The translations under genes and the position numbers were made by a program. Below are positions 18,518 to 54,800 of a stretch of 64,000 nucleotides of DNA, in pieces. Below the pieces are notes generated by a model. The model was not told the origin of the DNA and ran no database searches. It saw only the letters and a list, made by a program, of their open reading frames with translations. How positions within the stretch are numbered: the stretch's first letter is position 1; every line of letters starts with the position of its first letter. Origin of the DNA: Pirellulales bacterium. Lineage in GTDB: Bacteria > Planctomycetota > Planctomycetia > Pirellulales > Thermoguttaceae. The stretch lies in assembly GCA_963843465.1 (NCBI GenBank), contig CAWJKP010000001.1, positions 2,355,933 through 2,419,932 of the forward strand, given 5' to 3'.

Positions 18518-19933
18518 CTACTGCTTTACCTTCTGTTTCCATCGCTGGATTTGCTCCCGGACCTGCTGCGGGCCCGTCAAGCCGTAGCTTTGCATCGCTT
18601 GCACCGCCTGCGGGGCTCCCAAGACCGCGTACACCTCCGCGTCCAGGCCGGCGTGCGCCTCGCGGAACTCCTCCAGCGAAAGACCGGCCAACGGCACGCC
18701 TCGATCAATCGCCTTGCGGACCAGCCGGCCGACCAGGTCGTGGGCGGTCCGCTGGGGAACGCCTCGGCGGATGAGATACTCCATCAGCGTCGTGGCATCG
18801 AGATATCCTTGCTCCAGCCGTTGGGCGATCGCCGGCCGCAACAACTCGGCCCCCGCCACCAGCGGCACCGCCACCTCCAGGCAGGCCCGGACCGTGTCGA
18901 AGGCGTCGAACACCGGCGGCTTGTCCTCCTGCAGATCGCGGTTGTAGGCCAGCGGCAGTCCCTTGACCAGCACCAGGAGCGTCTGCAGGTGGCCGATTAC
19001 CCTCGCCGTCTTGCCGCGGATCAATTCCAGCACGTCGGGATTGATCTTTTGGGGCATGATCGACGAGCCGGTGCAAAAGGCCTGGGGCAGTTTGAGGAAG
19101 CCGAACTCGATGGTGGACCAGAGGATCCACTCCTCGGCCCAGGTGCTCAGATGTTCGGCGATCATCGCCAGTGCGAAGGTGAACTCCAGCAAGAAATCCC
19201 GGTCGCTGGAGATGTCCAGGCTGTTGGCGGCTACCCCCTCGAACCCCAGCCGCCGGGCGACGTCGAAGCGGTCGATCGGCAGGCTCGTTCCGGCCAGGGC
19301 GGCCGCGCCGAGGCTGAGCACGTTGGTTCGGCGGCGGCAGTCTGCCAGCCGGCCCCGGTCGCGGTCGAATTTCTCACAATAGGCAAGCCAATAGTGCGGC
19401 GCAAGCACCGGCTGCGCCCGTCGCGTATGGGTGTAGCCGGGCAGGATCACGTCGTAGTCGGCGTCGCAGCGGCCGACAAAGGCCCGTTGCAGATCGACCA
19501 GCCGCCGATCGATCTCGTCGATGGACTGGCGGACCCAGAGCCGCATGTCGGTGGCCACCTGGTCGTTGCGGCTGCGGGCGGTGTGCAGCTTGCGGCCAAC
19601 GTCGCCGATCCGTTGGATCAGCGCCCGCTCGATGTGCATGTGGATGTCTTCCAACTCCGTCGAGAAGCGGAAGCGGCCCTCGTCGATCTCCTTTTGGATC
19701 GCGTCGAGTGCCTGTTGGATCTGCCGGCACTCCTCGGGGCTGATCAGCCCGACGGCGGCAAGCATTTGGGCGTGGGCCAGCGAGCCTTGGATATCGTGCG
19801 CGGAGAGACGGCGGTCGAAGCTCACGCTTTCGGTGAACTCCTCGACCCGATGATCGGTCGCCTCTTGAAAGACGCCTCCCCATGCCTTCTCTGTCACGAA
19901 GCGACTCCCCGAATGGGTTGGATAGCTCGACAA
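18518..19933 (-). CDS. argH: Argininosuccinate lyase
   Basis: The full-length match to the fumarase/aspartase-fold lyase family includes WGGRF..., the S-S-x-MPQKxN catalytic loop ([12 protein letters not shown]) and ...[12 protein letters not shown]... Confidence 0.9.
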
Positions 19934-19959: not shown

Positions 19960-20086
19960 CTTACGTCACGTTGTCAACGTGAAGCCCCAGAGACGGGTGG
20001 TGCCATGGACCATTCTTGGCAGGCGTCGTGCCGGTTTGGTAGAATCCGGGCGCGGGGCGACTTTTGAGGATCGTGGAGCTTCAGCC

Positions 20087-21175
20087 ATGAGGGTGGATAG
20101 ACTGACACTCAAGGATTTTACGGTTTTCAGCGAGGCGAAGTTCGAATTCTCGCCCGGGCTGAACGTCCTCATCGGGGCCAACGGAACGGGGAAGTCGCAT
20201 GTGCTGAAAGCGCTTTTTAGCATCACGAAATCGATGCCGGTCGCGGGGGTATTCGTCGCAGCCGCGGTCAATCCGGTTTTCGACATCCGCGAGGCACTGG
20301 GGGTGCCCATTTTGAATAAGTTAAAGAGGACGTTCCGACCGGAACCAAGTCAGTCATCCCTTGCCTCTTTGATCCGACACGGGGAACACATCGCGGATAT
20401 TGCCGCCCATGGCGATTTCGGGACCACCGCAATCGCGTTCAGCGGCCATGATGCAAGTACCAGCTTTCCAGCATTCACACCGCCGAGGGGCTTTGCGGTG
20501 TTCGTCCCTGCCAGCGAGGCGCTTTCGATGTACCCTGGTTTCATCGCGGCCTACGAGCGTCGCGAGCTGTCGTTTGACGAGACCTTCCGCGACCTGTGCG
20601 TGGATTTTTCCGCAAACCCGCTCCACTCCATTGCCCCACCTGTTTTGGCGGATCTGGTTGCCAAATTGGACGATGCGGTTGGCGGCAAGACCGTGCTTCG
20701 TGGCGACAGGTTCTACGTGTCGGTTTCGGAGGATTGGCTACTTGAAGCGCCTATGTTGGCGGAAGGACTTCGGAAGCTCGCAACGGTAGCGCATCTGATT
20801 CGCAATGGCTCACTCGCCCAAGGGGGCGTGCTTTTCTGGGACGAGCCGGAAACCAACCTGAATCCAAGGCTCATTTCCAAGATAGCACACTCGCTTTTGG
20901 CGCTAGCCGCTGCGGGCATCCAAGTCTTCGTCGCCACGCATGATTACCTCCTGACAAACGAGCTTTCGTTGGTGGCCGAGTATGGGACTCCGGAAGCGAC
21001 GGCTGCCAAGCCGCAGTTCTTTTGCTTGTCCCAACCGGGCCCGCGCGAGCCAGTCCAGGTCGAGTGCGGCGACACGATTGCCGACCTTCACACGAACCCG
21101 ATCTTGGAGGAATTCGCCGCTCATTACGACAGAGAACAGAGGCTGTTCGCCGAGAGGCAGCCATCGGAGGAGTAG
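20087..21175 (+). CDS. AAA_15/AAA_21-type (ABC/SMC-like) ATPase, defence-system-like
   Basis: MRVDRLTLKDFTVFSEAKFEFSPGLNVLIGANGTGKSHVLKALF is the N-terminal Walker A architecture typical of OLD/PtuA/AriA/GajA-like ATPases. Walker B GVLFWDEPETNLNP. Signature-like MLAEGLRKL. H-loop VFVATHD. Local GC is visibly lower than the neighbours. The upstream ~1.6 kb of the listed 890-aa ORF is antisense argH and is rejected. Confidence 0.75.
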   Translation: MRVDRLTLKDFTVFSEAKFEFSPGLNVLIGANGTGKSHVLKALFSITKSMPVAGVFVAAAVNPVFDIREALGVPILNKLKRTFRPEPSQSSLASLIRHGEHIADIAAHGDFGTTAIAFSGHDASTSFPAFTPPRGFAVFVPASEALSMYPGFIAAYERRELSFDETFRDLCVDFSANPLHSIAPPVLADLVAKLDDAVGGKTVLRGDRFYVSVSEDWLLEAPMLAEGLRKLATVAHLIRNGSLAQGGVLFWDEPETNLNPRLISKIAHSLLALAAAGIQVFVATHDYLLTNELSLVAEYGTPEATAAKPQFFCLSQPGPREPVQVECGDTIADLHTNPILEEFAAHYDREQRLFAERQPSEE

Positions 21176-21178
21176 CGC

Positions 21179-21766
21179 ATGCCCCAGACGTTCGTGGAAG
21201 AGAACTTGCGGTTCACGTTCGATGACGCCTGGAGCGTAATCAAGCTCGACGAGGACCCTTTCTTTGTGAATCGGCTCAGGCCCGTGCAGCTTACTCGCGC
21301 CGTAGATTTCCTTGGGCTGCATCGGCAATCTGCTTTGTACTTCATTGAAGTCAAGGACTATCGAGGGTCGGCTATCGAGCTGAAGAATCAAGAGAAGATG
21401 TGCATGGGGGACACGCTGTATCATCAAGTTGCTCGCAAGTCTAAAGATAGCGTGGTATGCATTGCTGGCGCCGCAAGACTCTTGACGGATGCTTTCTGGT
21501 CGCACTGTGCCGATGTTCTCCGGAAACCGCAGTCCATCGTCAAGGTAGTCCTCTGGCTGGAATTCGACTTAGGGCGACGAGGGCATGGGCGAGACTCCAC
21601 GTGGGTTGAGCAGGAAACGAGGATGCTTGCAACGACAAAAGCTAAGTCGCTCAAGGCCGCCCTAACCTGGCTCACGAAAGAGGTGCTCGTCACCAACCAG
21701 ACTCTCGCCGCAAGGGAGTTGCCCGGCGTGACGGTTGAAAATGTCGCACGGGCAGGACACCGATGA
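21179..21766 (+). CDS. Hypothetical 195-aa partner protein with a putative PD-(D/E)xK nuclease motif
   Basis: It starts 3 nt after the ATPase stop. ...RAVDFLGLHRQSALYFIEVKDYRG... gives D-x13-E-V-K spacing compatible with a restriction-endonuclease-like fold. No other recognisable motifs. It has the same low-GC signature as the ATPase. Confidence 0.55.
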   Translation: MPQTFVEENLRFTFDDAWSVIKLDEDPFFVNRLRPVQLTRAVDFLGLHRQSALYFIEVKDYRGSAIELKNQEKMCMGDTLYHQVARKSKDSVVCIAGAARLLTDAFWSHCADVLRKPQSIVKVVLWLEFDLGRRGHGRDSTWVEQETRMLATTKAKSLKAALTWLTKEVLVTNQTLAARELPGVTVENVARAGHR

Positions 21767-21876
21767 GTAGCGACTATAGCGTCAGCCAACTGATCATCAA
21801 CTCGCCCTACCGGGAGCCTGGGGGGAGGCACTGACGAACGCGCTGAGGTTGGGCGCCGCGGGCTGAGAACTACGTC

Positions 21877-21913: not shown

Positions 21914-22822
21914 ATGTCTGCCAACGCCGCCCTTGTGGATCAATTGCGATGGAAGAAGTTTCCCTTGCTCAATGAGGGGTTCGTCTGCCTGGTGGACGCG
22001 ATGGGCGACGACCAGGCGATCGTCCAGGCAGCCCGGGTCAGTTATGGAGAGGGAACCCGGCGGGTCTCCGACGACCGGAGCTTGATCCGCTACTTGATGC
22101 GGCACCAGCATACCACGCCGTTCGAGATGGCCGAGGTGAAGCTCCTGGTGCGGGTGCCGATGGACTGCTGGCGGCAGTGGATCCGCCACCGGACGGCATC
22201 GGTCAACGAGTACAGCACCCGCTATTCGGTGGCCATCGAGGCTGCCCAAATCACCCCGCCGGACGCATGGCGGCTCCAGTCGGGGTCCAACCGGCAAGGC
22301 AGCGAGGGGTTCCTGGACGCCGCCACCGGGGCCGAGTTGTCGGCCGAGGAGCGCCGGCTGCAATCCGAGGCCCGGCGAGTCTACCAGCGGCGGTTGGAGT
22401 TGGGCGTCGCGCGGGAGCAAGCACGCAAGGATCTGCCGCTGGCCACGTTCACCGAGGCCTACTGGAAGATCGACTTGCACAACCTGCTGCACTTTCTCCA
22501 GCTACGGATGGACCCTCACGCCCAGTGGGAGATCGCGCAGTACGCCACCACGATCGGCCATGAGATCGTGCGGCCGTTGTTCCCCCTGGTCTGGGAGGCA
22601 TTCATCGACTATCGTGTGGAGTCGCTCACGCTGGGCCGGCTGGAGCAAGGGGTGGTGGCCCGGTTGGCCGCGTGCGGGCGATTTCCCGCCGGGGAGGCCG
22701 ACTTTCTCGCCGCCCAGGACGCCAGTTGGGAAAAATTGGCCCGCTGCCGCGAGCGCGACGAGTGCCGGGCGAAGCTCGTGCGGCTGGGGCTCTTGCGCGA
22801 TGAAGGGACTGTAGGACAGTAA
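21914..22822 (+). CDS. thyX: Flavin-dependent thymidylate synthase
   Basis: ThyX signature RHRTASVNEYSTRYS (RHR-x7-S), plus the N-terminal ...CLVDAMGDDQAIVQAARVSYG... typical of ThyX. Confidence 0.9.
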   Translation: MSANAALVDQLRWKKFPLLNEGFVCLVDAMGDDQAIVQAARVSYGEGTRRVSDDRSLIRYLMRHQHTTPFEMAEVKLLVRVPMDCWRQWIRHRTASVNEYSTRYSVAIEAAQITPPDAWRLQSGSNRQGSEGFLDAATGAELSAEERRLQSEARRVYQRRLELGVAREQARKDLPLATFTEAYWKIDLHNLLHFLQLRMDPHAQWEIAQYATTIGHEIVRPLFPLVWEAFIDYRVESLTLGRLEQGVVARLAACGRFPAGEADFLAAQDASWEKLARCRERDECRAKLVRLGLLRDEGTVGQ

Positions 22823-23380: not shown

Positions 23381-24950
23381 CGTACTCGTCACGCTCCGCG
23401 GTAACCGTTCACGGCCCGGAGGCCGTTCTTTCGTAAATTGATCTGGACACAGGAGGGGTTTTCGGGGACGACATACGTCATGCCGTCCAACGAAGCAAGG
23501 CCACTGACGATTCCACCAGAACTCGATGCCGAGATGACCCCGGCAGTCCGTGCCTTTGTCGGGTTGCTGCTGGACCGGATTGCGAAACTGGAAGCCCGGG
23601 TGGAAGAACTCGAACGTGGCCGGAAAACGCCGCAGAACTCCTCGTTGCCGCCCAGCACAGTGCATCCCCATGCCAAACCCGTCTCGACGAAACGCAAGTC
23701 GAAGAAGAAACGCGGCGGGCAGCCGGGGCACAAGAAACATGAGCGGCCGTTGATCCCCGCCGAGGAGTGCGACGAGGTGAAGCCTCTGAAGCCGACCGAA
23801 TGCCGACGCTGCGGCGAAAAGCTCTCCGGCAGCGATCCCGAGCCGCTGCGGCACCAGGTGTGGGAATTGCCGGAGATCAAGGCCCACGTGACCGAGTACC
23901 AGCGGCATCGGCTGGCGTGTCCCTCGTGCGGAGAAACAACCTGTGCGGAACTGCCTCGCGGCGTGCCTCTGGGGCAGACAGGACCGCGATTGATGGCCTT
24001 CACCGCGCTGTTGATGGCCTACTATCGCCAAAGCAAGCGGCGCACGGCCGAGTTCCTCACGACGCTCTTGGGCCAGCCCTGCTGTCCGGCGCTGACTGTG
24101 AAGATCGAGAACCAGGTGACGGCGGCCGTGCGGCCGTCGTATGAGGCGCTGGCGGCTCAACTGCCCGCCCAAGAGCAGTTGAACATCGACGAAACGGGGA
24201 CCAAGCAGGAAAACGACAAGGCGTGGCTGTGGACCTTCGTCGCCGGCATGTTCACCGTGTTTGCCGTGCGTGCCACGCGCGAGGCCACGGCATTGACCAC
24301 CTTCCTGGGTGCGTCGTTCCACGGCATCGTCACCTGCGATCGGGCCAAAATGTACTGGCACCTGGGCCGTTTGCAATGGTGCTGGGCCCACCTGAAACGC
24401 GATTTCCAAGCGATGATCGACAGCGGCGACCCTCGGGCGAAGCACCTGGGCTTCCGCTTGCGGCACGCAGCGTGCGAATTGTTCGAGCACTGGGCCGACT
24501 ACCGCCAGGGCAGAATTTCGAGGGCGGCCTTGCTGCGTCGGATGGCCCCCGTCCGCCGCAACGTGGAGCGTTTGCTGCTGCGTGGCACCCAATGCGGTCA
24601 CGCCGACACGCGCGGCACGTGCCGGGAATTGTACGAACATCGCTCCTGGCTGTGGATGTTCCTGCGTCACGAAGGGCTGGAACCGACAAACAATGCGGGC
24701 GAGCGGTCGTTGCGTCATGCGGTGATTTGGCGAAAGCTTTCCTTCGGGACCCAAAGCGCCAACGGCAGCCGCTTCGTCGAGACGATGCTGACGGTAGTAG
24801 AAACCTGCCGCCAGCAGCGCCGCAACGCCTTCGCTTTCCTGGCTCACGCCGTCGAAGCTCATCTTGCCCACCAACCTGCCCCTTCATTGCTCCCCGGGGC
24901 GTGAACGGTTACCGCTCCGCGTGACGCACGGCCTCACGCGGAGCGTGAGG
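23381..24950 (+). mobile_element. IS66-family insertion sequence (single-ORF type) with imperfect terminal inverted repeats
   Basis: Left end CGTACTCGTCACGCTCCGCGGTAACCGTTCACGGCC. The reverse complement of the right end is CGTACTCCTCACGCTCCGCG[extra palindrome]GGTAACCGTTCACGCC. It encloses the TnpC-type transposase gene. Confidence 0.75.
23480..24904 (+). CDS. IS66-family transposase (TnpC-like)
   Basis: N-terminal leucine zipper (IAKLEARVEELER). Zinc-ribbon CRRCG...CPSCG. Conserved IS66 blocks: NIDETGTK, WLWTF, CWAHLKRDF, EPTNNAGERSLRHAVIWRK. Confidence 0.85.
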   Translation: MPSNEARPLTIPPELDAEMTPAVRAFVGLLLDRIAKLEARVEELERGRKTPQNSSLPPSTVHPHAKPVSTKRKSKKKRGGQPGHKKHERPLIPAEECDEVKPLKPTECRRCGEKLSGSDPEPLRHQVWELPEIKAHVTEYQRHRLACPSCGETTCAELPRGVPLGQTGPRLMAFTALLMAYYRQSKRRTAEFLTTLLGQPCCPALTVKIENQVTAAVRPSYEALAAQLPAQEQLNIDETGTKQENDKAWLWTFVAGMFTVFAVRATREATALTTFLGASFHGIVTCDRAKMYWHLGRLQWCWAHLKRDFQAMIDSGDPRAKHLGFRLRHAACELFEHWADYRQGRISRAALLRRMAPVRRNVERLLLRGTQCGHADTRGTCRELYEHRSWLWMFLRHEGLEPTNNAGERSLRHAVIWRKLSFGTQSANGSRFVETMLTVVETCRQQRRNAFAFLAHAVEAHLAHQPAPSLLPGA

Positions 24951-26592: not shown

Positions 26593-29445
26593 ATGAGCGC
26601 GAGCGGCCGGCAGATCGAGACCCAGGACAGCCAGCAGATCCGTATCCGCGGGGCCCGAGTCCATAATCTCCGCAACATCGACCTGGACATCCCGCGCAAC
26701 CGGCTGGTGGTGATTACCGGCCCCAGCGGGTCGGGGAAGAGCTCCTTGGCCTTCGACACCCTCTATGCCGAGGGCCAGCGGCAGTACATCGAAAGCCTCT
26801 CGGTCTACGCCCGCCAGTTCCTCCATCAGCTCGAGCGGCCCGACGTGGACCTGATCGAGGGGCTCCAGCCGACCGTTTCCATCGACCAACGGGCGGGGGC
26901 CCGTAATCCCCGCAGCACGGTCGCCACGGTGACGGAGATCTACGACTACCTGCGGCTGCTGTATGCCCGGCTGGGCGAGCCGAGTTGTTACCAGTGCGGC
27001 GCGCCGATCCGCCAGCAGACGCCCGAGCAGATCCTCGACCGCCTGCTGGCCATGCCCGAGGGCACCCGGCTGATGCTCTTGGCTCCCATGGTCCGCGGGC
27101 GCAAGGGGCAGCACAAGGAGGTCTTCGAGGCGATCCGCAAGGCGGGCTTCAATCGGGTCCGGGTCGACGGCCTGGTGACCGACCTGGACAGCCCGCCCGA
27201 GCTGACCCGGCAGAAGACCCACCAGATCGAGGCCGTGGTCGATCGGGTGGTGATCCGCGAGGGGGTCCGCAGCCGCTTGGCCGAATCGATCAAGCTGGCG
27301 GTTCGTCACGGCGACGACCTGGTGCTGGCCACTTACGAAGAGAAGCGGCCGGACGGCCTGGCGGTCTGGCACGATCTGTTGTTCAGCACGCAATACGCCT
27401 GCCCCAACTGCAAGATCAGTTACGAGGAGCTGGAGCCGCGGACGTTCAGCTTCAACAGTCCCTACGGGGCCTGCCCGACCTGCGAAGGGCTGGGCGTGCG
27501 GGTGGAGTTCGACCGGGAGCTGGTGGTCCCGAACCTGGCGCTCTCGCTGGCCGGCGGCGCGGTGGCGCCTTGGAAAGGCGCCTCGCCGGCAGCCCAGAAA
27601 AAGCTCCAGGCGGCGATGGGGGACTTCATGGCGGCGGCCGGATTCCGCTGGAATACGCCGCTGGAGAAGCTCAAACCCCATGTCCTGGGGGAACTACTGC
27701 ACGGCGACGGCAAGGGCTTTCCCGGTGTGCTGGCGATGCTCCAGAGGCAGTACGCCACGGCCGCCGGCGACGCCCGGCGCCAGCCGCTGGAGATCTTTCG
27801 CGGCGAGGTGACCTGCGCGGCTTGCGGCGGGGCACGGCTGCGGGCGGAGGCCCGCGCGGTCCGCCTGGCCGGCCGGGCGATCCACGAGCTGACGGCCCTG
27901 AACGTCCGCCAGGCGCGGGAGTTCTTCGCCGCGATCGTCTTCCCCGAGCCGCAGCGGCCGATCGCCGAGCCCCTGGTCCGCGAGACGGTCTGGCGGCTGG
28001 AGTTTCTCGACCACGTCGGCCTGGACTACCTCACGCTCGACCGGCCCGCCGACACGCTCTCCGGCGGCGAGTTGCAGCGGGTCCGGCTGGCTTCGGGGCT
28101 GGGCTCGGGACTGGTCGGGGTTTGCTATATCCTCGACGAGCCCTCGATCGGCCTGCACCCCCGCGACAACCAGCGTCTGATCGACGCCATTCGCCAACTC
28201 CAGGTCCGCGGCAACACGGTGATCGTCGTTGAGCACGACGAGACGGTCATGCGGCGGTCGGACTGGCTGGTGGACCTGGGCCCCGGGGCGGGCCGGCACG
28301 GGGGGCAAATCGTGGCCCAAGGCACACCCGACGCCATCAGCCGCGATCCGGCCTCCCTCACCGGCCGCTATCTCTGCGGCGAGCTGCGGATCCCGCTGCC
28401 CGCCCGCCGCCGCCGCGTCTCCAAGACCAAGATGATCACGCTGGAAGGAGCGCGGACCAACAACCTCAAGAACGTCACCGTTCAGTTCCCGCTCTCGGTC
28501 TTCGTGGGCGTCACCGGCGTCAGCGGCTCGGGCAAGAGTTCCCTGTTGGACCAGACGCTGGCCCGGGCGCTGGTGCGCCGCCTGGGCGGCGTCGCGCCCA
28601 AGCCGGGACCGTACGACGGTCTCCGCGGGGCCAGCCGCATCGACAAGGTAGTCCAGATCGACCAGTCGCCCATCGGCCGCACCCCGCGGAGCAATCCGGC
28701 CACCTACAGCGGCGTCTTCGACGAGATCCGCAAGGTCTTCGCCGGCACCCGCGACGCCCGCCGCCACGGCTACCGCTCGGGCCGCTTCAGCTTCAACGTT
28801 GCCGGCGGCCGCTGCGAACAATGCCAAGGGCAGGGCCTGCAGAAGATCGAGATGAACTTCCTGCCCGACCTCTACGTCTCCTGCCCCGTGTGCGAGGGCA
28901 AACGCTTCAACCGCCAGACGCTCGAAGTCCGCTACAAGGGACGCTCGATCGCCGACGTCCTCGACATGCGCGTCGACGACGCCCTGCTGTTCTTCGAGAA
29001 CTTCCCGGCCATCGCCCGGCTGCTGACCAGCCTGCAAGAGGTCGGCTTGGGCTACGTCACGCTGGGGCAATCCTCCACCACGCTCTCCGGCGGCGAGGCG
29101 CAGCGGATCAAGCTGGCCACGGAGCTCGGCCGCGTGGACACCGGCCGCACGCTGTACATCCTCGACGAGCCGACCACCGGCCTGCACTTCGACGACATCC
29201 GCAAGCTCTTGGACGTCCTCTCCCGCCTGGTGGACCTGGGCAACACGGTGATCGTCATCGAGCACAACCTCGACGTGATCAAGTCGGCCGACTGGATCAT
29301 CGACCTGGGGCCCGAAGGCGGCCAGCGCGGCGGCCAGGTGGTGGCCACCGGAACGCCCGAGCAGATCGCCGCCGTCGCCGGCAACCACACCGGCTGGCAT
29401 CTTCGAGGCGTGCTGGAAGGCAAGGAGTTAGGAGTTAGGAGTTAG
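26593..29445 (+). CDS. uvrA: Excinuclease ABC subunit A
   Basis: 950 aa. Two ABC ATPase modules ([15 protein letters not shown]...; [11 protein letters not shown]...), zinc fingers (CPNC...CPTCEG; C.QC.G) and LSGGE signature motifs ([12 protein letters not shown]; [12 protein letters not shown]). The last residues (LGVRS*) are encoded by a heptamer repeat element. Confidence 0.95.
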
Positions 29446-32938: not shown

Positions 32939-33277
32939 CTACGATGGCCGAATAGATCGTTTCCGTCGGCTGCGGACTGGCTTGGCCCGGCCCGCTAACC
33001 ACTTCTTGAACGAGCGTTGACTCTCGGCTGACGGCTGGCCGGCAAGCAAGTTGGCGACGCTGACGTCCTCGTCGATCGCCGGCCAATGGATGCCCCGCCC
33101 ACCCCCGAGCAGCCGCCAAGCCCCCCGCTCCTCGGCCGAGGCGTGCGACAGCCGGGGAAACCAGGCCAGCGGTGCGGCGATGGTACGGCCATCGGCCAAC
33201 TCGACCGATAGGGTGTCATCGCTTACCGCAACATGGGTAGCCAATGCCTCGCGGGTTTCAACCGTGGAAGAACTCAT
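32939..33277 (-). CDS. DUF2442 domain protein (partner of DUF4160)
   Basis: 112 aa. ...LSVELADGRTIAAPLAWFPRLSHASAEERGAWRLLGGGRGIHWPAIDEDVSV is the DUF2442 consensus. It overlaps the upstream DUF4160 gene by about 20 nt. Confidence 0.6.
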   Translation of the reverse strand: MSSSTVETREALATHVAVSDDTLSVELADGRTIAAPLAWFPRLSHASAEERGAWRLLGGGRGIHWPAIDEDVSVANLLAGQPSAESQRSFKKWLAGRAKPVRSRRKRSIRPS

Positions 33278-33494
33278 TCCAACCCTCCAATAACTGCTCC
33301 CGATGCTCCGCGACCAGCTCGCGGATTCGGTTGATCTCTTTCCTGCCGAAGCCGCGGCTATGCGTCAACCGGACTGGGTCGAGCCAGAACTTCGCCTCGC
33401 AGTCGTTGCGTTCGACGTGGACGTGAGGCGGCTCGCCCCCATCGCCGGCGTAGAAGTAGAACCGGAATGGACCCGCTCGAAGTACAGTCGGCAT
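33258..33494 (-). CDS. DUF4160 domain protein (partner of DUF2442)
   Basis: 78 aa. MPTVLRAGPFRFYFYAGDGGEPPHVHVERNDCEAKFWLDPV is the DUF4160 pattern. Confidence 0.6.
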   Translation of the reverse strand: MPTVLRAGPFRFYFYAGDGGEPPHVHVERNDCEAKFWLDPVRLTHSRGFGRKEINRIRELVAEHREQLLEGWNEFFHG

Positions 33495-33540
33495 GCGCCA
33501 ATGCTACACCAACCTGGTGCAACGAGCAACAGCCAAACAG

Positions 33541-33643
33541 GTCAGGCACCCCGTGCCTGACGGCTGGCCGGAATGACCCACCATCGCCAGGCGACGTGGC
33601 TCGATGGAGTTCGATTTCAGGTCGTCAGGCGCGGGGTGCCTGA
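33541..33643. terminator. Pair of inverted GC-rich hairpins (TCAGGCACCCCGTGCCTGA and its complement-like partner) between the two toxin-antitoxin-like operons
   Basis: 8-bp stems with 3-nt loops at 33541-33561 and 33622-33643. They sit downstream of the DUF433-DUF5615 operon on the minus strand. No clear U-tract, so factor-independent function is uncertain. Confidence 0.3.
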
Positions 33644-33678
33644 GCTCCCTGGCTGCCCCGGGAGGAACGCGGCTTACC

Positions 33679-34040
33679 CTACTTGCTCGTTCGTATGCGA
33701 ATGCGGACTTCGTCGACGATGGCCAACCCGCCGCGGATTCGCTCCAGGATTCCCGACGCCACCAAATGGCGCGCCGGTTCCTGCAGCACCGCCCAACGCT
33801 GATCGTGAAGCCGAAATACGACGATTCCCCCGTGGCTGCCGACGGGAAAACTTCTCACGTCGGCGAAATCCAGATCGAAGGTCACGAGGACGCGGTTCTC
33901 GGTCGTGGCCGCTTGCAGAATCGTCGGGTCGGCCGCTCCGCCGAGGCCCTCTTCGGCAACGGTCAATGCATCGTGGCCCGCTTGGCGAAGCAGCTCCGTC
34001 ATGGCTGACGGCATGTTTGCGTCGAGCTTGACTCTCATTG
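33679..34040 (-). CDS. DUF5615 (PIN-like / Mut7-C-like) domain protein, putative toxin
   Basis: MRVKLDANMPSAMTELLRQAGHDALTVAEEGLGGAADPTILQAATTENRVLVTFDLDFADV... matches the DUF5615 pattern. Its start overlaps the DUF433 stop (ATGA-type overlap). Confidence 0.6.
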
Positions 34041-34322
34041 CGTCGGTACGGTGTGCAGCGGTTGCTGCTCCTCTTCGTGGGCGAGCCACGCCGCGTATCC
34101 CAGAGCGGCGCGAATGTCGTCGTCCGTCAGCGCCGGATACTGTCGCCGGATTTCCTCGGCGGTCTGCCCCCCCTTGAGGTAGTCGAGGATGATCGAGACC
34201 ATGATCCGGGTGCCCCTGATGCACGGTCTGCCATGACAGACCTTCGCGTCAACGGTAATACGTTCTTGCCAAGTCACGGTGAGCATCTCCACGAGCAGTT
34301 CAGGGTGGTTTTCGGATACCAA
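34035..34322 (-). CDS. DUF433 domain protein, putative antitoxin
   Basis: ...ITVDAKVCHGRPCIRGTRIMVSIILDYLKGGQTAEEIRRQYPALTDDDIRAALGYAAW is the canonical DUF433 sequence. Confidence 0.65.
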   Translation of the reverse strand: MVSENHPELLVEMLTVTWQERITVDAKVCHGRPCIRGTRIMVSIILDYLKGGQTAEEIRRQYPALTDDDIRAALGYAAWLAHEEEQQPLHTVPTQ

Positions 34323-34500
34323 GTATTATAACCGCCTCACGCCGCCCGCCCAATCTGCTGCATAATGGCGGCGAGATCCCCGTCGTGCTCCGGCCAAAGA
34401 ACAAAATGCCAGTGGTTGGACGGCAGGCAGCAGGCGCACACTCGCACCGGGAAATTGACGCGGGCTGGGCACCGACCTAAGATGCAAGTGCAGGCCGATC

Positions 34501-35055
34501 ATGACCACAACCGAACCGCTGATAACTGCCGAGTATCTCTTGCGAGCCCACGACCTGGGACGATGCGAATTGGTCCGCGGGGAACTGATTATGATGTCGC
34601 CTGCGGGGGCTGAGCATGGGAGGATCATCTACAATATCGAGGCACGGCTGGCGCCCTACGTATTGCAGCGGGGAGTTGGCTGCATCTTTGGGGCCGAAAC
34701 GGGCTTTCATATCGCCCACGACCCGGATACCGTCCGAGCGCCGGACATAGCCTTTGTCAGCATGGACCGGCTTCCTCCGCAGCCGCCCAAGGGGTTCTTT
34801 CCAGGGCCGCCGGATCTGGCCGTGGAAGTGGTCTCGCCCGACGAACGGGAAAACGAGGTCCTAGCGAAAGTTCAGAACTGGCTGGATGTCGGATGCCGGG
34901 CCGTCTGGCTGGTCGATCCCCGCCGGCAGACCGTTGGCGTCTACCAAAGTGGAAACGAGACCCAGGTTTTCGGACTCTCCGACACGCTCGTCGGCGGCCC
35001 CCTGCTGCCGGGTTTTTCCCTTGCGGTGGCGGAGGTCTTCAAGTGGAAACCGTAG
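34501..35055 (+). CDS. Uma2-family (DUF820) putative restriction-endonuclease-like protein
   Basis: ...YELVRGELIMMSPAGAEHGRIIYNIEARL...APDIAFVSMDRL...PDLAVEVVSPDE... matches the D/E-x-K Uma2 pattern. Confidence 0.7.
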   Translation: MTTTEPLITAEYLLRAHDLGRCELVRGELIMMSPAGAEHGRIIYNIEARLAPYVLQRGVGCIFGAETGFHIAHDPDTVRAPDIAFVSMDRLPPQPPKGFFPGPPDLAVEVVSPDERENEVLAKVQNWLDVGCRAVWLVDPRRQTVGVYQSGNETQVFGLSDTLVGGPLLPGFSLAVAEVFKWKP

Positions 35056-49208: not shown

Positions 49209-50060
49209 TCAAGGCCCAAGAGGCGGCTCGGCGGCAATGAAGGACGCATAATGGGCGGCGGCGAGCGACAGGTCGCTGTCGCGAGGCAAAAGCAGGCAGC
49301 GGAGCCGAGCGCGAAGGATCACGCCCTTCTCCAATCGCCCCGAGAACAAGCGGTAGGCAAGCCGGAACGCCCGAGCACGGGTCACCTTGACCCGCGTGCA
49401 GTCGGCCGGGTCGAAATCTAGGAACGACCCTCTTACCCGTTTCAGTTCGAGCCCGGTGCAGTCGGCCGGGTGGACCATTGCGGCGAAGCTCCAGGCGTCG
49501 CCAGGCAGGCGGAACAACAGGCAGCCGGGGGCGCCACGGTTGGATTCCTCACCCGTGCTCTCGGCGCCGCTGCAAAGGCCAGCCGTAGCAGCCGACGACG
49601 CTTGCGGGCCGGGTGCAACCGAGCAGGGTTCGAAGCGGCCAGGGTCCGCCGAGGCCAATCGCCAGGCACCCGTTGCCGCCACGGTATTCCAGACCGCCAT
49701 CTCCGGCCGGCTGTCCAACAACGGGGTCCGCACGGAGACCACCAGGTCCAACACCGCCAGCGGTTCCTCAATGCCGGCACGCCAGCGGGCGTCGACGCGG
49801 ACGGGCCAGGAGGGCGACTCGCCATACGCTGCCACAAGGTTGTCCCATTGGACGTAGCGCTCCAGCAGGCGAGTTCCGTCGAGCTGCCCTGGCGCGGCGG
49901 CTTCCAGCGCCAGCAGGGACAACGCCAACGGCTGGCCGTGGTAACGCACCGCGATCAGGCCCCGCGACGGCCGGGCCAAGTCGAGGGTCGCGGTCAACGG
50001 GCCGATTCGCAGCGTGCCGCAGGAACTCTCGAGCAACCACGGTTGCGCAATCATCGCCAT
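49209..50060 (-). CDS. Hypothetical protein
   Basis: 283-aa ORF co-directional with uxaC, overlapping it by 4 nt. No recognisable motif. The coding call rests on length and operon context only. Confidence 0.4.
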   Translation of the reverse strand: MAMIAQPWLLESSCGTLRIGPLTATLDLARPSRGLIAVRYHGQPLALSLLALEAAAPGQLDGTRLLERYVQWDNLVAAYGESPSWPVRVDARWRAGIEEPLAVLDLVVSVRTPLLDSRPEMAVWNTVAATGAWRLASADPGRFEPCSVAPGPQASSAATAGLCSGAESTGEESNRGAPGCLLFRLPGDAWSFAAMVHPADCTGLELKRVRGSFLDFDPADCTRVKVTRARAFRLAYRLFSGRLEKGVILRARLRCLLLPRDSDLSLAAAHYASFIAAEPPLGP

Positions 50061-50365
50061 CCATCAAAAAACCCCGCCGCTCGCAACTAAGGCGAAACGG
50101 CGGGGCCGGAACAGAGAAGAGGCCAGACTACGATCAAACGTCCTCGGATGAATCAAACCGCCAAAAAGGATGCTGTTCCGGAGGCGAAGGGCCCTGAATG
50201 ATGCACCGGGTATTCCTTACCCCCTTCCCTCACCCCTGATGATACCAATTCCAAAACCATTGTCCAGCCATTTTCGAGAAAATTGGGGAAACCCGCATCT
50301 TGCTCCCTTTCCCCCGCGATGGGTGGTATTATTTGGTGAGCTACGTTAAACACAGAAAATGGGCA

Positions 50366-50476
50366 AGCGTTCACGGCCACGTCGGGCGGCCACGTTGGGG
50401 ACTGGTCCATTTTTCGGCGAGAAAGCGCTTTTTGCCGTTGGACGTAAGGCCGAAAACATGGACCTGTCCCCTACGG
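50366..50476. repeat. REP/MITE family A, degenerate copy
   Basis: GTTCACGGCC...GGGACTGGTCCATTTTTCGGCG...GGCCGAAAACATGGACCTGTCCCCTACGG. Confidence 0.5.
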
Positions 50477-50524
50477 GAACACTAATCGACGCTAATCGAC
50501 GCTAACATGGTAAATTAGCGAAGA

Positions 50525-50670
50525 TTAGCGAGCCCGAATTATTCACGGCCGCATCGTAAGCGCGAAGCGTAAGCGAGGCTGGCTAAGGGACTTACCCTCG
50601 CTTACGCTTCGGGTTTCGATTCGCGCTCTGCACCGTTTACATCACGGGGAGTGAATAATCCGGGGTGAGG
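50525..50670. repeat. MITE family B, second copy
   Basis: CCCGAATTATTCACGGCCGCATCGTAAGCGCGAAGCGTAAGCGAGGCTGGCTAAGGGACTTACCCTCGCTTACGCTTCGGGTTTCGATTCGCGCTC...GGGGAGTGAATAATCCGGGG. Confidence 0.5.
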
Positions 50671-50838
50671 ATTAGTGTTCCGTCTTTCGGCCCTTCTTTT
50701 TGAGGGACACGTCAACGCTTCCCTAACTTCGTGCGTATAAGGCTCGCTGCGCTCGACGCACCCTACCTTTCCGCGACAGGAACTTCTTATAATCCGGGAG
50801 AATCATCCCACACGTCTGCCTTCAGATCGGTGGTCATA

Positions 50839-51654
50839 ATGCCTGGCTTCATGGAGATTTGCGAGGAAGCCGTCCGCCGGACGGGGCGTCTGCTGCTGGA
50901 GCGGCTGGGGAAGGTCACCGCGCGGGAGAAAGGCCCGGCCGACTTGGTAACCGAGGCCGACTTTGCCGCCCAGGAAATGGTGCGGCAGACGGTCCTGGAG
51001 GCATTTCCGGACCACGTCTTGATCGCGGAAGAAGATCCGGCGGCACTTTCCAAAGCGGGCCGCCGAGCCGCCGGAGAGAAGCCGCTTTACCGCTGGATCG
51101 TCGATCCGCTGGACGGCACCACCAACTATGTTCACCAGGTACCCCATTTCAGCGTATCCCTGGCTTTGGAGCACGATGGGCAGATCCTCGTGGGAGCGGT
51201 TCACGACCCTTCCGCCGATGAGTGCTTCACGGCGGTTGCGGGGGAAGGGGCCTGGCTGAACGGCCGCCGCATCCAGACCAGCCGGGTGACCGAACTGGCC
51301 AACGCCCTTTGTGCCATCGGGTTTCCTGCGGCTACCCGCCATGACTCCCCGGAACTGTTGCTGTTCCTCGAAGGGCTGGACCGAATCCAAGCCTTCCGTC
51401 GGACCGGTTCGGCATCGCTGAATCTTTGCTATGTCGCTTGTGGGAGGTACGATGTCGCCTGGTCGTTTTCCACGAAGATTTGGGACATCGCCGCCGGCAC
51501 GCTGCTGATTCGCGAGGCGGGCGGTCTGGTTACTTCGCCGGATGGAGGCGACCTGATTTTGGAGGAGGGACGTTTTTTGGCCGCCGCAAACGAGCGGCTA
51601 CACCGGCAGGTTGGGCAACTAGTCTTAGCGGCTGGTTTATCTTCCCACCTATAG
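50839..51654 (+). CDS. suhB: Inositol monophosphatase family protein (SuhB/IMPase-like)
   Basis: ...ADFAAQEMV...IAEED...WIVDPLDGTTNYVHQVPHFSVSLAL...WDIAAGTLLIREAGG carries the IMPase metal-binding motifs DPLDGT and WD.AAG. Confidence 0.8.
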   Translation: MPGFMEICEEAVRRTGRLLLERLGKVTAREKGPADLVTEADFAAQEMVRQTVLEAFPDHVLIAEEDPAALSKAGRRAAGEKPLYRWIVDPLDGTTNYVHQVPHFSVSLALEHDGQILVGAVHDPSADECFTAVAGEGAWLNGRRIQTSRVTELANALCAIGFPAATRHDSPELLLFLEGLDRIQAFRRTGSASLNLCYVACGRYDVAWSFSTKIWDIAAGTLLIREAGGLVTSPDGGDLILEEGRFLAAANERLHRQVGQLVLAAGLSSHL

Positions 51655-51822
51655 CGGTAAACCCACGGCGAGAAGCTCGGATTTTGTTGCTTCAAGATAG
51701 GAGGTCGGTGCGGTAGACTGAAGGTAACGCACCTCTTCCAAAGCTCCGTTCTGGGTGGGCTGGGGGATGGTTCTCCCGGTCTATTGCTGTGCGTCGGTCG
51801 TCTAGCGTAAGGGCCCGAAGCC

Positions 51823-54800
51823 TTGCAGGGTTGCAAACCGCAATTATTTCTGGGGACCGTTTGGCTATTGCTCGGCTGGTGCTCCTGGCTATCTGCGGAG
51901 GAGTTGCCGGCGGCACGCCGCGAGCCGTCCAAGACGGCCCCCGCGGTCGAGCCGATCCAGGAATCCCCGCTGACCATCCATCTGAAGGACAAGGACGGCA
52001 GGCTGATCCCGATGTTGGATTGGTCGTTCGAGGACTTCATTCGGGTTTACCAGGAGAACCGGGGGTTCAAGCAACGGGACGAGACGCCCGCCTACAGCCT
52101 TCAGTCGATGTCGATTACGGGGGCCGCCAAGGGGGATTACGCCGAGTTGAGCATCGAATTTGGGGTGCTCGTGCGGGATGGCCAGTGGACCCGGGTGCCT
52201 TTGCGGTTGAACCAGGCGATCCTGCGGGAGGGAGTGAAATATGCGGGTCCGGGGCAGCAGTTTGTGGGGTTTGAGGCGGCAGGTGACGGGTACGTCAGTT
52301 GGATCCACGGGGCGTCCGCGGAGCGGCACCGGCTGACGATGAACGTCATGGTCCCGCTGGCCAGCGTGGGGGAGGAGACGCGGCTGAAGCTCTCGGTGCC
52401 GCGGGCGACCAGCAGCGAGTTGAAGCTGACGGTGCCGCTGGCCAAGGCGTTTGGGCAGGTCGCGGAAGGGTCCACCCTGGCGTCGAAGCCGGCCAATGGG
52501 GGCGCGGCCACGGAATTCGACGTGCTGGGACTTGGGGGCGATTTCGAGATCTCCTGGCGGAAATCGGCCAGCGCCGCGGCCGAGGGACAGCCCGTGCTGG
52601 AAGCGGTGGGCGCGATTTCCGCCCGGGTCGACAGCCGGTTGGTGAACACTGAGGCGGTGCTGACGGTGCGGGCCTTTGGCGGACTGCTGGATCACTTTCG
52701 CGTCCGGCTTCCGCAAGGGTCGGAATTGGTGGCGGGGAATCCGATGGGCTACACGGTCGTGCCGTCGGCGGCCAAGGGGGCGGCGGCGGATGCGAGGGAA
52801 GTCGAGGTGCGATTTCCGCGCAAGGTTTCCGGGCCCGTCGAGGTTCGCCTGGCGACGCGGCAGACGTACGAAGCGGCGCCGGCAGGGGGTTGGTTCGAGC
52901 TGGCCGGGTTCGAGGTGGTGGAGGCGGGGCGGCAGTGGGGCCATTTCGCCATCAGCGTGGTCGGCGATCTGCACGTCGTTTGGGGACCGGATAAGGGTGT
53001 GCGGCAGGTCGACGAGTTGCCGGAGCCCCTGCGGCGGGAGAACTTGCTGGCGGGGTTCGAGTATTTCACGCAGCCCTTTTCGCTCACCGCCCGGGTCGTT
53101 TCGCGGAAGACGCGGCTGAGCGTCGAGCCGGAGTACGTGTTCCTGGTCGAGCCGGACCAGGTGCGTCTGAAGGCGAAGCTGAAATACACGGTTCGCGGGG
53201 CGAAGACTTCGGCCCTGGACGTGATCCTGCCCGATTGGACGCTGGATGAGGTCGGTCCCGACAACCTGGTGGCGGTCGATGCGGTGGCGACCGGTCCGAA
53301 GGGCACGGTTTCCATCCCGCTGACCACGCCCTCGATCGGTCCGCTGGAGATCGACTTGCGGGCGCACAAGCGGCTGGAGCCGGGCGCCAAGTCGGTTTCC
53401 TTCGCCATGCCGCAACCGCAAAACGGATCGGTCAGCCCGGCGGCGGTGGTGGTCTTACCCGCCGACAACGTCGAGCTTTCGACCGATTCCAAGGCCACCA
53501 TCGGGCTGATCCGGCAGCAGAACGCCCCGCCCATGAGCCTGCCCGAGCGGCAGCAGGCGCCGTGGTTCTATCGTGCCGAGTCGCCCAAGGCGGTCTTCGC
53601 CGCGGCCGTCACCACCCACAGCCAATCGGTCGGCGTGGATGTCGCCAGCGAGGTCCAGATCGTCGGGCAGAAGGCCCTGGTAGAGGAGAAGATTTCCTAC
53701 GCAGTCGCCTATCAACCTCTGGACAAGGTCTCGTTGCAGGTGCCGCGGAGCCTGCTGGGATCGGACAAGATCGAGATCAGCATCGATGGGCAGCCGCTGT
53801 CGCTGAGCGAGCCGGCCGATGCAGCCGACAAGCCGGGCGAGCCCGGGCCCGTCCTACGGCGGTTGCTGCTGCCCTCGCCACGGATCGGGACCTGCGAGCT
53901 GGTCGTGAGGTATCCGATCGCGCTGGAAAAGCTGCTGCCGGAAGCGGGCATCAGCGCCAGCGTGCCGTTGGTCATGCCCCTGGACGGCAAGCTCACAAGC
54001 AACCGCGCGCTGGTGACGGCCAACGCCGGCGTCCGCGTGCAACTCCTGGAGGGCCCGTGGACGGTGGTCGATCCGTCGGTCCCAGAGCTTGAACATCGGC
54101 AGGGGCAGCAGTTGGCCGCCACCCAGCGGAGCGACCGCGTTGTGCTGGGCATTCACCTGGAAGACCGCGACGCCCTGGGGGCGACGATCGTCGAGCGGGC
54201 CTGGATCCAGACCGTGTTCTTGGACGGCGGCCGGCAGGACCGGGCCGTGCTGCGCTTCACCAGCGATCAGCGGGAGCTGAGCCTGGCGGTCCCCGCGGGG
54301 ATCGACCCGGGCAAAGTCGAGGTCTGGCTCGACCGGCAGCGGGTGGAAGGGACGCCTGCCGGCGGAAAGCTCACGATCGAGCTGCCGGAAGGCTTTTCCC
54401 AAGGTTCGCACTGGCTCGAGGCGAGCTATCGTTTTCCGGCGGGCCCGGCGGGCCGGGGGTGGCTCTCGCTGGAACTGCCGCACCTGGGGCGGGATGTTTG
54501 GGTCCGCCGCCTGTACTGGCAACTGGTCTTGCCCAGGAACGAGCACGTGATTGCCTCGCCGGCCGGCATGTTGCCGGAATTCACCTGGGGTTGGAACGGG
54601 AGTTTTTTCGGCCGCAACCCTTCGTTCGAGCAGCCGATGCTGGAGGTTTGGAGCGGGGGCCAGCACCGTACGCCGGTGCCGTTTGCCACCAGTCGCTACG
54701 TCTATAGCAGTTTACAGCCGGTGGAGCGCTGCGAGCTGCGAACGGCCAACCGGACGTGGATCGTGTTGTTTGCGTCGGGGCTGGTCTTGATTGGCGGGTT

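Follow-up and report, generated by a model that had tools for sequence, protein, structure and literature searches.

A two-gene ATPase–nuclease cassette between argH and thyX in a Pirellulales genome is very probably a stand-alone copy of the anti-phage system HEC-02

Two adjacent genes of low GC content lie between argH and thyX in a 64,000-nucleotide stretch of a Pirellulales genome (contig CAWJKP010000001.1 of GenBank assembly GCA_963843465.1, positions 2,355,933 to 2,419,932; hereafter, the window). Gene 1 encodes an ATPase of the ATP-binding cassette (ABC) type and gene 2 a small predicted nuclease. Judged by comparison with known proteins, the cassette very probably represents the two-gene anti-phage defense system HEC-02, in the form of a horizontally acquired, stand-alone copy. 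An initial annotation, made from the sequence alone, had described it as an uncharacterised candidate defense module, possibly a distinct family. Given that HEC-02 models are included in PADLOC-DB 2.0.0 (2023) and that the system has been experimentally validated, neither description holds: the pair is a new, divergent, Thermoguttaceae-like planctomycete member of HEC-02, not a new kind of system.

HEC-02 (Hma-embedded candidate 02) was discovered as a cassette inside Hma and comprises an ABC ATPase (HEC-02A) and a NERD / PD-(D/E)xK protein (HEC-02B) (Payne et al., bioRxiv 10.1101/2024.01.29.577857). When the pair from Dickeya was cloned alone in Escherichia coli, the plaquing of at least two phages was cut by orders of magnitude, and both genes were required (Payne et al.). 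The tested proteins, listed in Table S2 of that study, are WP_024108366.1 (342 amino acids, aa) and WP_024108365.1 (169 aa) of Dickeya dianthicola; the ATPase gene is upstream of the nuclease gene, with a 4-nt overlap (Payne et al.).

Both genes of the window are full-length matches to HEC-02 models and clear homologues of the tested Dickeya pair. Gene 1 matches the PADLOC model HEC-02A (PDLC04213) with E = 3.6e-80 and 268 bits (residues 1-352 against profile positions 1-331 of 337); its other PADLOC scores are 72 bits for AriA and at most 44 bits for PtuA and GajA. Gene 2 matches HEC-02B (PDLC04228) with E = 1.5e-16 (residues 6-181 against positions 4-192 of 199), which places it in a known defense partner family, and HEC-02 models are matched by all 67 of the gene-2 relatives scanned. 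It should be noted that the A and B labels in PADLOC-DB are partly swapped: PDLC04145, labeled HEC-02A, matches the nuclease (67/67 relatives, best E = 1.5e-57), and PDLC04146, labeled HEC-02B, matches the ATPase (E = 2.5e-70), which is A in Payne et al.

Direct comparison with the tested proteins gives the same result. Gene 1 is 34% identical to WP_024108366.1 over 357 aa (E = 3e-58). For gene 2, pairwise BLAST aligns the N-terminal 81 residues with WP_024108365.1 (32% identity, E = 5e-7), and a profile of the 67-sequence gene-2 family aligns with the tested nuclease end to end over 167 columns (hhalign probability 99.9%, E = 3.5e-35). The RefSeq label of WP_024108365.1, “cysteinyl-tRNA synthetase,” is a misannotation. 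In both pairs the ATPase gene precedes the nuclease gene, and the stop and start codons overlap or nearly do so. Gene 1 and WP_024108366.1 have in common the motifs LxAEGLRKLA (LVAEGLRKLA in the Dickeya signature motif), FWDEPExNLNP, and GIQxFxAxH, and the two nucleases share the catalytic motif A(V/M)D...IEVKDYR. There are also differences. Gene 2 is 195 aa long, as opposed to 169 aa for the tested nuclease, with most of the extra length unmatched around residues 131-140 (planctomycete-type relatives of gene 2 have extra residues around 131-147), and the window pair, in a high-GC host, is not inside Hma or any restriction-modification system.

The initial annotation had read a D-x13-E-x-K spacing in gene 2 as compatible with a restriction-endonuclease-like nuclease core, and conservation and structure prediction now agree on a PD-(D/E)xK nuclease-like core with these residues. 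D43-x13-E57-x-K59 is present and is invariant in 31 close and 67 distant homologues; across the latter, which extend down to 21% identity, the full set of invariant residues is F14, D43, E57, V58, K59, D60, R62, and K87. A model built from the 31-sequence alignment (predicted local distance difference test score 88.6, predicted template modeling score 0.87) places D43 just ahead of a strand at residues 44-48 and places E57 and K59 in the next strand, 52-60. The modeled elements follow one another as helix 27-33, hairpin (44-48, 52-60), helix 80-101, and strand 120-128, and this helix-hairpin-helix-strand order is that of the canonical PD-(D/E)xK core. The predicted fold is restriction-endonuclease-like, with structural matches at lower Z that include Can2, BstEII, NucS, McrC, and HamA. 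When the PDB was searched with the gene-2 profile, the only matches were spurious ones to designed coiled coils, and there was no solved HEC-02 structure.

The gene-2 family is large. When sequences are clustered at 50% identity, an exhaustive profile search yields 1,620 representatives with E <= 1e-3, of which 934 have E <= 1e-10; nearly all of them are stand-alone proteins of 175-200 aa. Among the 67 relatives, 24 have weak NERD matches and 31 match Pfam DUF6661 (PF20366), a family of unknown function that probably represents a portion of the HEC-02B nuclease family. All of the NERD matches, including that of gene 2, fall under the Pfam cut-off. The best DUF6661 match among the relatives has E = 4.3e-08, and gene 2 of the window has none. 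The arrangement D...(D/E)xK on adjacent strands is shared with NERD and other stand-alone PD-(D/E)xK nucleases (PF08378; the N-terminal NERD of PglW, the nuclease domain of Hna, HamA), whereas gene 2 and its relatives are always paired with a dedicated ABC ATPase.

Gene 1 is an ABC-clade P-loop NTPase in which Walker A, Walker B, signature, and H-loop are all intact (Table 1). Every ATPase motif quoted in the initial annotation is present, and most of the core residues are invariant in 52 homologues. In Pfam, gene 1 matches generic ATPase families only (AAA_21, 6.7e-20; AAA_15, 3.7e-12), and an NCBIfam scan of both genes gave nothing above cut-offs. More than 2,891 ATPase homologues are found at E <= 1e-10. 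The PADLOC scan and fold comparison bear out the view that gene 1 is an ABC-type defense ATPase in the style of OLD, Septu, and PARIS: the closest solved folds include the heads of Rad50, SMC, RecF, RecN, SbcC, and PtuA, and in a sequence search of the PDB, matches of gene 1 were confined to the N-terminal P-loop regions of PtuA and Rad50. The gene-1 model has no long helical or coiled-coil arm, in agreement with the statement that HEC ATPases are ABC, not AAA+ (Payne et al.). The 362-aa start is consistent with all gene-1 homologues; in one ENA assembly an identical gene 1 (L002:9055-9996 / P0036) is called from an internal start as a 313-aa protein, losing the N-terminal strand and Walker A. 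We also observed a 501-aa homologue of gene 1 (P0129; 45% identity, full coverage) with fused TIR domains (PF01582, PF13676) on a 2.5-kb Logan contig, and thus a HEC-02-type ATPase may combine with effectors besides the NERD nuclease.

Other known ATPase-nuclease systems were considered and rejected. PARIS consists of the ABC ATPase AriA and the TOPRIM nuclease AriB, but the predicted gene-2 fold is of the restriction-endonuclease-like PD-(D/E)xK type rather than TOPRIM/DUF4435, gene 2 has no AriB or TOPRIM match in PADLOC or Pfam, and the gene-1 ATPase resembles the heads of SMC and PtuA more closely in structure than it does AriA. In Septu and the retron type I-A effector, the ABC ATPase PtuA is combined with the HNH protein PtuB; gene 2 has no HNH match in PADLOC or Pfam, and the similarity of gene 1 to PtuA is confined to the N-terminal P-loop region (the N-terminal 43 residues; NCBIfam 34 bits vs. 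a cut-off of 500). As the initial annotation had supposed, the partner is neither PtuB nor AriB. In Gabija and OLD, TOPRIM is fused to the ATPase, with the additional helicase GajB in Gabija; gene 1 has only 362 aa, its GajA and Old matches are limited to short P-loop or C-terminal stretches, and no helicase adjoins the pair. Membership in AbiL was likewise rejected, and so was Mre11-Rad50/SbcCD, given the PD-(D/E)xK fold predicted for the partner, the lack of a long helical arm in the gene-1 model, and scores for gene 1 of 22-32 bits against Rad50 models with cut-offs of at least 700.

The kinship of gene 1 with Rad50 raises the question of whether the pair could be a miniature housekeeping DNA-repair module, in which a Rad50/RecF/SbcC-like ABC ATPase and a nuclease process DNA ends or damage and have no part in immunity. 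The closest folds and the sequence matches to Rad50 are in line with this, as is the location of the pair among core genes (argH, thyX, and a UvrA-like gene) with no clear defense island. However, gene 1, at 362 aa and with no arm in its model, has neither coiled coil nor zinc hook, an Mre11/SbcD partner is absent, the HEC-02 scores are far above those of the Rad50, RecF, and RecN models (which are well under their cut-offs), and the homologous Dickeya pair protected against phage. A patchy distribution, neighbors that differ even at 77-81% identity, and GC content and GC at third codon positions (GC3) below those of the flanks (all described below) also run counter to a housekeeping role. We consider a repair module extremely unlikely.

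Linkage of the two genes was evaluated in loci from a genome scan that included one genome per species and yielded at least 80 loci. A gene-1-type ATPase is directly upstream of gene 2, on the same strand, in all 80 loci listed. The median distance between the genes is 1 nt; they overlap in 47% of loci and are within 10 nt of each other in 88%. Pairwise divergences of the ATPases track those of the nucleases (r = 0.81, Mantel p = 0.001). In the window, the gene-1 stop codon TAG (21173-21175) and the gene-2 ATG (21179) are 3 nt apart, as first described, and a GGAGGAG Shine-Dalgarno-like run is found just 5' of the ATG, so translational coupling is plausible. The invariable linkage, the short gaps, and the GGAGGAG run thus indicate an obligate and probably translationally coupled pair. 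A conserved third gene was sought across the 80 loci and none was found; only genes 1 and 2 recur, and the ABC-transporter and kinase clusters near some pairs are incidental. Nor does a transposase or integrase recur beside the pair in these loci. Gene-2 homologues in three of the 80 loci (L035, L040, and L084) have an internal stop codon, owing to either decay or sequencing error.

Tightly coupled genes, overlapping in so many loci, could also suggest a pair whose main role is that of a toxin-antitoxin or addiction module, with the nuclease as toxin and the ATPase as antitoxin; it would serve to stabilize a genomic region or mobile element, and phages would be affected incidentally if at all. 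A small nuclease next to a possible restrainer, the mobility of the pair, and the Pfam label of AAA_21 (“putative AbiEii toxin, Type IV TA system”) can be cited in favor. On the other hand, a simple antitoxin would not typically be an ATPase of 362 aa whose catalytic motifs are fully conserved, the protection given by the tested homologue is phage-specific and depends on both genes, no transposase or integrase recurs beside the pair, and no copy was found in plasmid or phage collections. We think this explanation very improbable; moreover, it overlaps mechanistically with abortive-infection defense, so that the difference is one of emphasis more than a true alternative.

The distribution of the family is broad but patchy. 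Among the matches listed, the phyla represented are Planctomycetota, Chloroflexota, Desulfobacterota, Myxococcota, Pseudomonadota, Acidobacteriota, Deinococcota, Verrucomicrobiota, and Spirochaetota, with single weaker matches in Bacteroidota (Hymenobacter) and Lentisphaerota (Victivallales). The carriers listed include Sorangium, Nannocystis, and Polyangium (Myxococcota), Marithrix, Thiomargarita, Accumulibacter, Acidovorax, and Pseudomonas (Pseudomonadota), as well as Leptospiraceae. Homologues that are 77-81% identical to the window genes have unrelated neighbors, and none are near argH or thyX. This disposes of the notion of a housekeeping pair universally syntenic with argH, for which ordinary GC content would have been expected as well. 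In fact, the pair is lower in GC than its flanks in the window and in five of five other loci tested. Its GC content is 0.573, as compared with a window mean of 0.654 (standard deviation 0.03, calculated in 1.68-kb windows); only 0.8% of 1.68-kb windows are as low or lower, and the pair falls inside the lowest-GC stretch of the 64 kb. Genes 1 and 2 have GC3 values of 0.70 and 0.66, vs. 0.85 for argH and 0.86 for thyX. The differing neighbors, the low GC and GC3, and the patchy distribution all have the look of horizontal acquisition, which the initial annotation had proposed based on GC content. The pair moves as a unit.

Some neighbors deserve mention. In one locus (P0005), a 77%-identical pair is located between a 1000-aa N6_N4 DNA methyltransferase and a 935-aa ResIII helicase. 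In about five other loci of the 80, a large N6_N4 methyltransferase occurs in the flanks: directly upstream of the pair in L010 (L010:4641-6866), upstream in L043 and L036 (L043:1441-4635; L036:925-3540), and downstream in L024 and L035 (L024:8290-9609; L035:8771-10774), that of L035 being fused to an HhH-GPD glycosylase domain. Flanking of this kind is the embedding pattern through which HEC-02 was found. These loci, together with the first discovery of HEC-02 embedded in Hma, could be taken to mean that the pair serves restriction-modification or Hma-type systems as an accessory module and that the window copy, with no methyltransferase or helicase nearby, is an orphaned, non-functional remnant. 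Yet only about five of 80 loci have such a neighbor and most pairs, including that of the window, stand alone; the published test used the HEC-02 pair by itself and still found protection. Furthermore, both window genes are intact and keep every invariant residue, and there is a promoter-like site upstream of gene 1. A remnant of this kind is, in our view, highly unlikely.

Several points weigh against the identification of the window pair as a functional HEC-02 system. The window pair shares only about 32-34% identity with the single tested pair, and its presumed defense role follows from homology. The PADLOC score of gene 2 is modest, 59 bits, and its Pfam match to NERD (E = 0.064, residues 38-71) is below threshold. 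The apparent clustering of D43, E57, and K59 in three dimensions is read from the positions of the predicted strands, not from coordinates. As regards mobility, a tblastn search of plasmid and phage collections with gene 2 gave no match, and carriage on plasmids or phages is thus without support; repeats on either side of the cassette, direct or inverted, were also sought, but the only matches were short and at chance level, with no insertion scars or att-like sites. Finally, the sensing mechanism of HEC-02 and the role of ATP are stated to be unknown in the Discussion of Payne et al.

How the system may work is best approached through PARIS, in which the nuclease AriB is held sequestered on a scaffold of the ATPase AriA until a phage protein is detected in an ATP-dependent manner, whereupon AriB is released (PMC11464382). 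The same sensor/release scheme has been proposed, not demonstrated, for HEC-02 (Payne et al.). By analogy, the products of genes 1 and 2 would be co-translated and form a complex in which the ATPase acts as the infection sensor and holds the nuclease inactive. On detecting a phage cue, either a phage protein or a nucleic-acid structure that is abnormal, the ATPase would undergo an ATP-dependent conformational change that licenses or releases the nuclease, which would then cut nucleic acid, most likely DNA although possibly RNA. Phage replication would be stopped, possibly at the cost of the infected cell (abortive infection). We put this forward tentatively, as a scheme that has somewhat less than an even chance of being correct, based on PARIS and other ATPase-nuclease defense pairs. 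Because the gene-1 head is closest to those of SMC, Rad50, and PtuA, it could instead act as a miniature Rad50-like clamp on DNA ends or replication intermediates of invading DNA, loading or activating the NERD nuclease there. The outcome would be direct, non-abortive degradation of the foreign DNA and not toxin sequestration; we regard this as rather unlikely. Under the same reading, the divergent planctomycete branch, with its extra nuclease residues around 131-147, could have a trigger or substrate different from that of the tested enterobacterial system.

The features of the locus are compiled in Table 1. Both open reading frames (ORFs) are intact and located as the initial annotation had them; its length of 363 aa for gene 1 included the stop codon. 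The promoter-like site upstream of gene 1 falls within the 153-bp divergent intergenic region between argH and gene 1, and the consensus scan that identified it observed three sites vs. 0.5 expected. A 22-nt imperfect direct repeat with 73% identity (21156-21177 and 21751-21772) extends across both stop codons (…GAGTAGCG) and is probably due to chance.

Table 1. Features of the cassette and of its surroundings; positions are those of the 64,000-nucleotide window
Feature	Position	Strand	Remarks
argH	18518-19933	-	Divergent from gene 1
Promoter-like site TTGGCA-18 nt-TAGAAT with extended TG	20016-20045	+	Sigma-70-like consensus match only
Ribosome-binding site of gene 1, GGAG	~20075-20078	+	Sequence reading
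Gene 1	20087-21175	+	362 aa plus stop; HEC-02A-type ABC ATPase; SMC/Rad50/PtuA-like head without coiled coil
Walker A / P-loop G30-A-N-G-T-G-K-S37	20174-20197	+	G30, N32, G35, K36 invariant in 52 homologues
ABC signature-like L224-A-E-G-L-R-K-L231	20756-20779	+	E226, G227, R229, K230 invariant in 52 homologues
Walker B and D-loop V248-L-F-W-D-E-P-E255	20828-20851	+	W251, D252, E253, P254, E255 invariant in 52 homologues
H-loop T284-H285-D286	20936-20944	+	H285, D286 invariant in 52 homologues
Gene 2	21179-21766	+	195 aa; predicted HEC-02B-type NERD-like PD-(D/E)xK nuclease, presumed effector
D43 codon (“D” of the PD motif)	21305-21307	+	Invariant in 31 and in 67 homologues; in the model, immediately before core strand 44-48
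E57-V58-K59-D60 codons, (D/E)xK motif	21347-21358	+	All four invariant in 67 homologues; strand 52-60; aligned with IEVKD of the tested HEC-02B
thyX	21914-22822	+	Downstream of the pair
IS66-family transposase (DUF6444, zf-IS66, DDE_Tnp_IS66)	23438-24904	+	1.7 kb downstream of the pair
DUF4160	33258-33494	-	Lone gene
DUF5615 PIN-like protein	33679-34038	-	Overlaps DUF433
DUF433	34035-34322	-	Overlaps DUF5615
Uma2 putative restriction endonuclease	34501-35055	+	Match to PADLOC candidate PDC-S03, E = 5.6e-22

The wider surroundings correspond only in part to the defense island that had been envisaged. The neighbors named in the initial annotation (divergent argH, thyX, and an IS66 element) are all present. 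The IS66-family transposase occupies the same position in a second, independent assembly (L001), and no link between it and the cassette was found. Of two toxin-antitoxin-like pairs reported nearby, one is present (DUF433/DUF5615, 33679-34322); a lone DUF4160 gene and a Uma2 gene are close to it. Together, these make up a small cluster of toxin-antitoxin-like and candidate-defense genes (33258-35055) about 11.5-13 kb from the pair, with ordinary genes (EF-hand, GYF, UvrA-like, MscL) in between. With the nearest other candidates about 12 kb away, and with family neighbors in the loci examined mostly ordinary and unrelated genes, the case for a defense-island context is weak.

Two other parts of the window are worth recording. 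A gene at 26593-29445 (+) encodes a protein of 950 aa in which Pfam recognizes the domains UvrA_inter and UvrA_DNA-bind and which scores 327 bits against the PADLOC model “mad3.” It is most likely an ordinary UvrA, and thus the mad3 model may yield false positives on UvrA. The second-lowest-GC stretch of the window, at about 49800-52200 (GC content about 0.58-0.60), includes an ORF at 49209-50060 (-) without a Pfam or PADLOC match and an inositol monophosphatase gene at 50830-51654; between these, a gap of about 770 bp (50061-50829) is without an ORF in the GC3-based gene call.

In terms of annotation, the two genes of the cassette, labeled “hypothetical” or “AAA family ATPase,” can be relabeled as a HEC-02-type anti-phage pair. 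The family is broad, occurring in many bacterial phyla, including Planctomycetota, Chloroflexota, and Myxococcota. Invariant residues are now defined for mutagenesis, namely D43, E57, K59, D60, R62, and K87 of the nuclease and K36, D252/E253, and H285 of the ATPase. Scientifically, it is the unsolved mechanism of HEC-02 in general that matters, rather than the argH-thyX locus itself.

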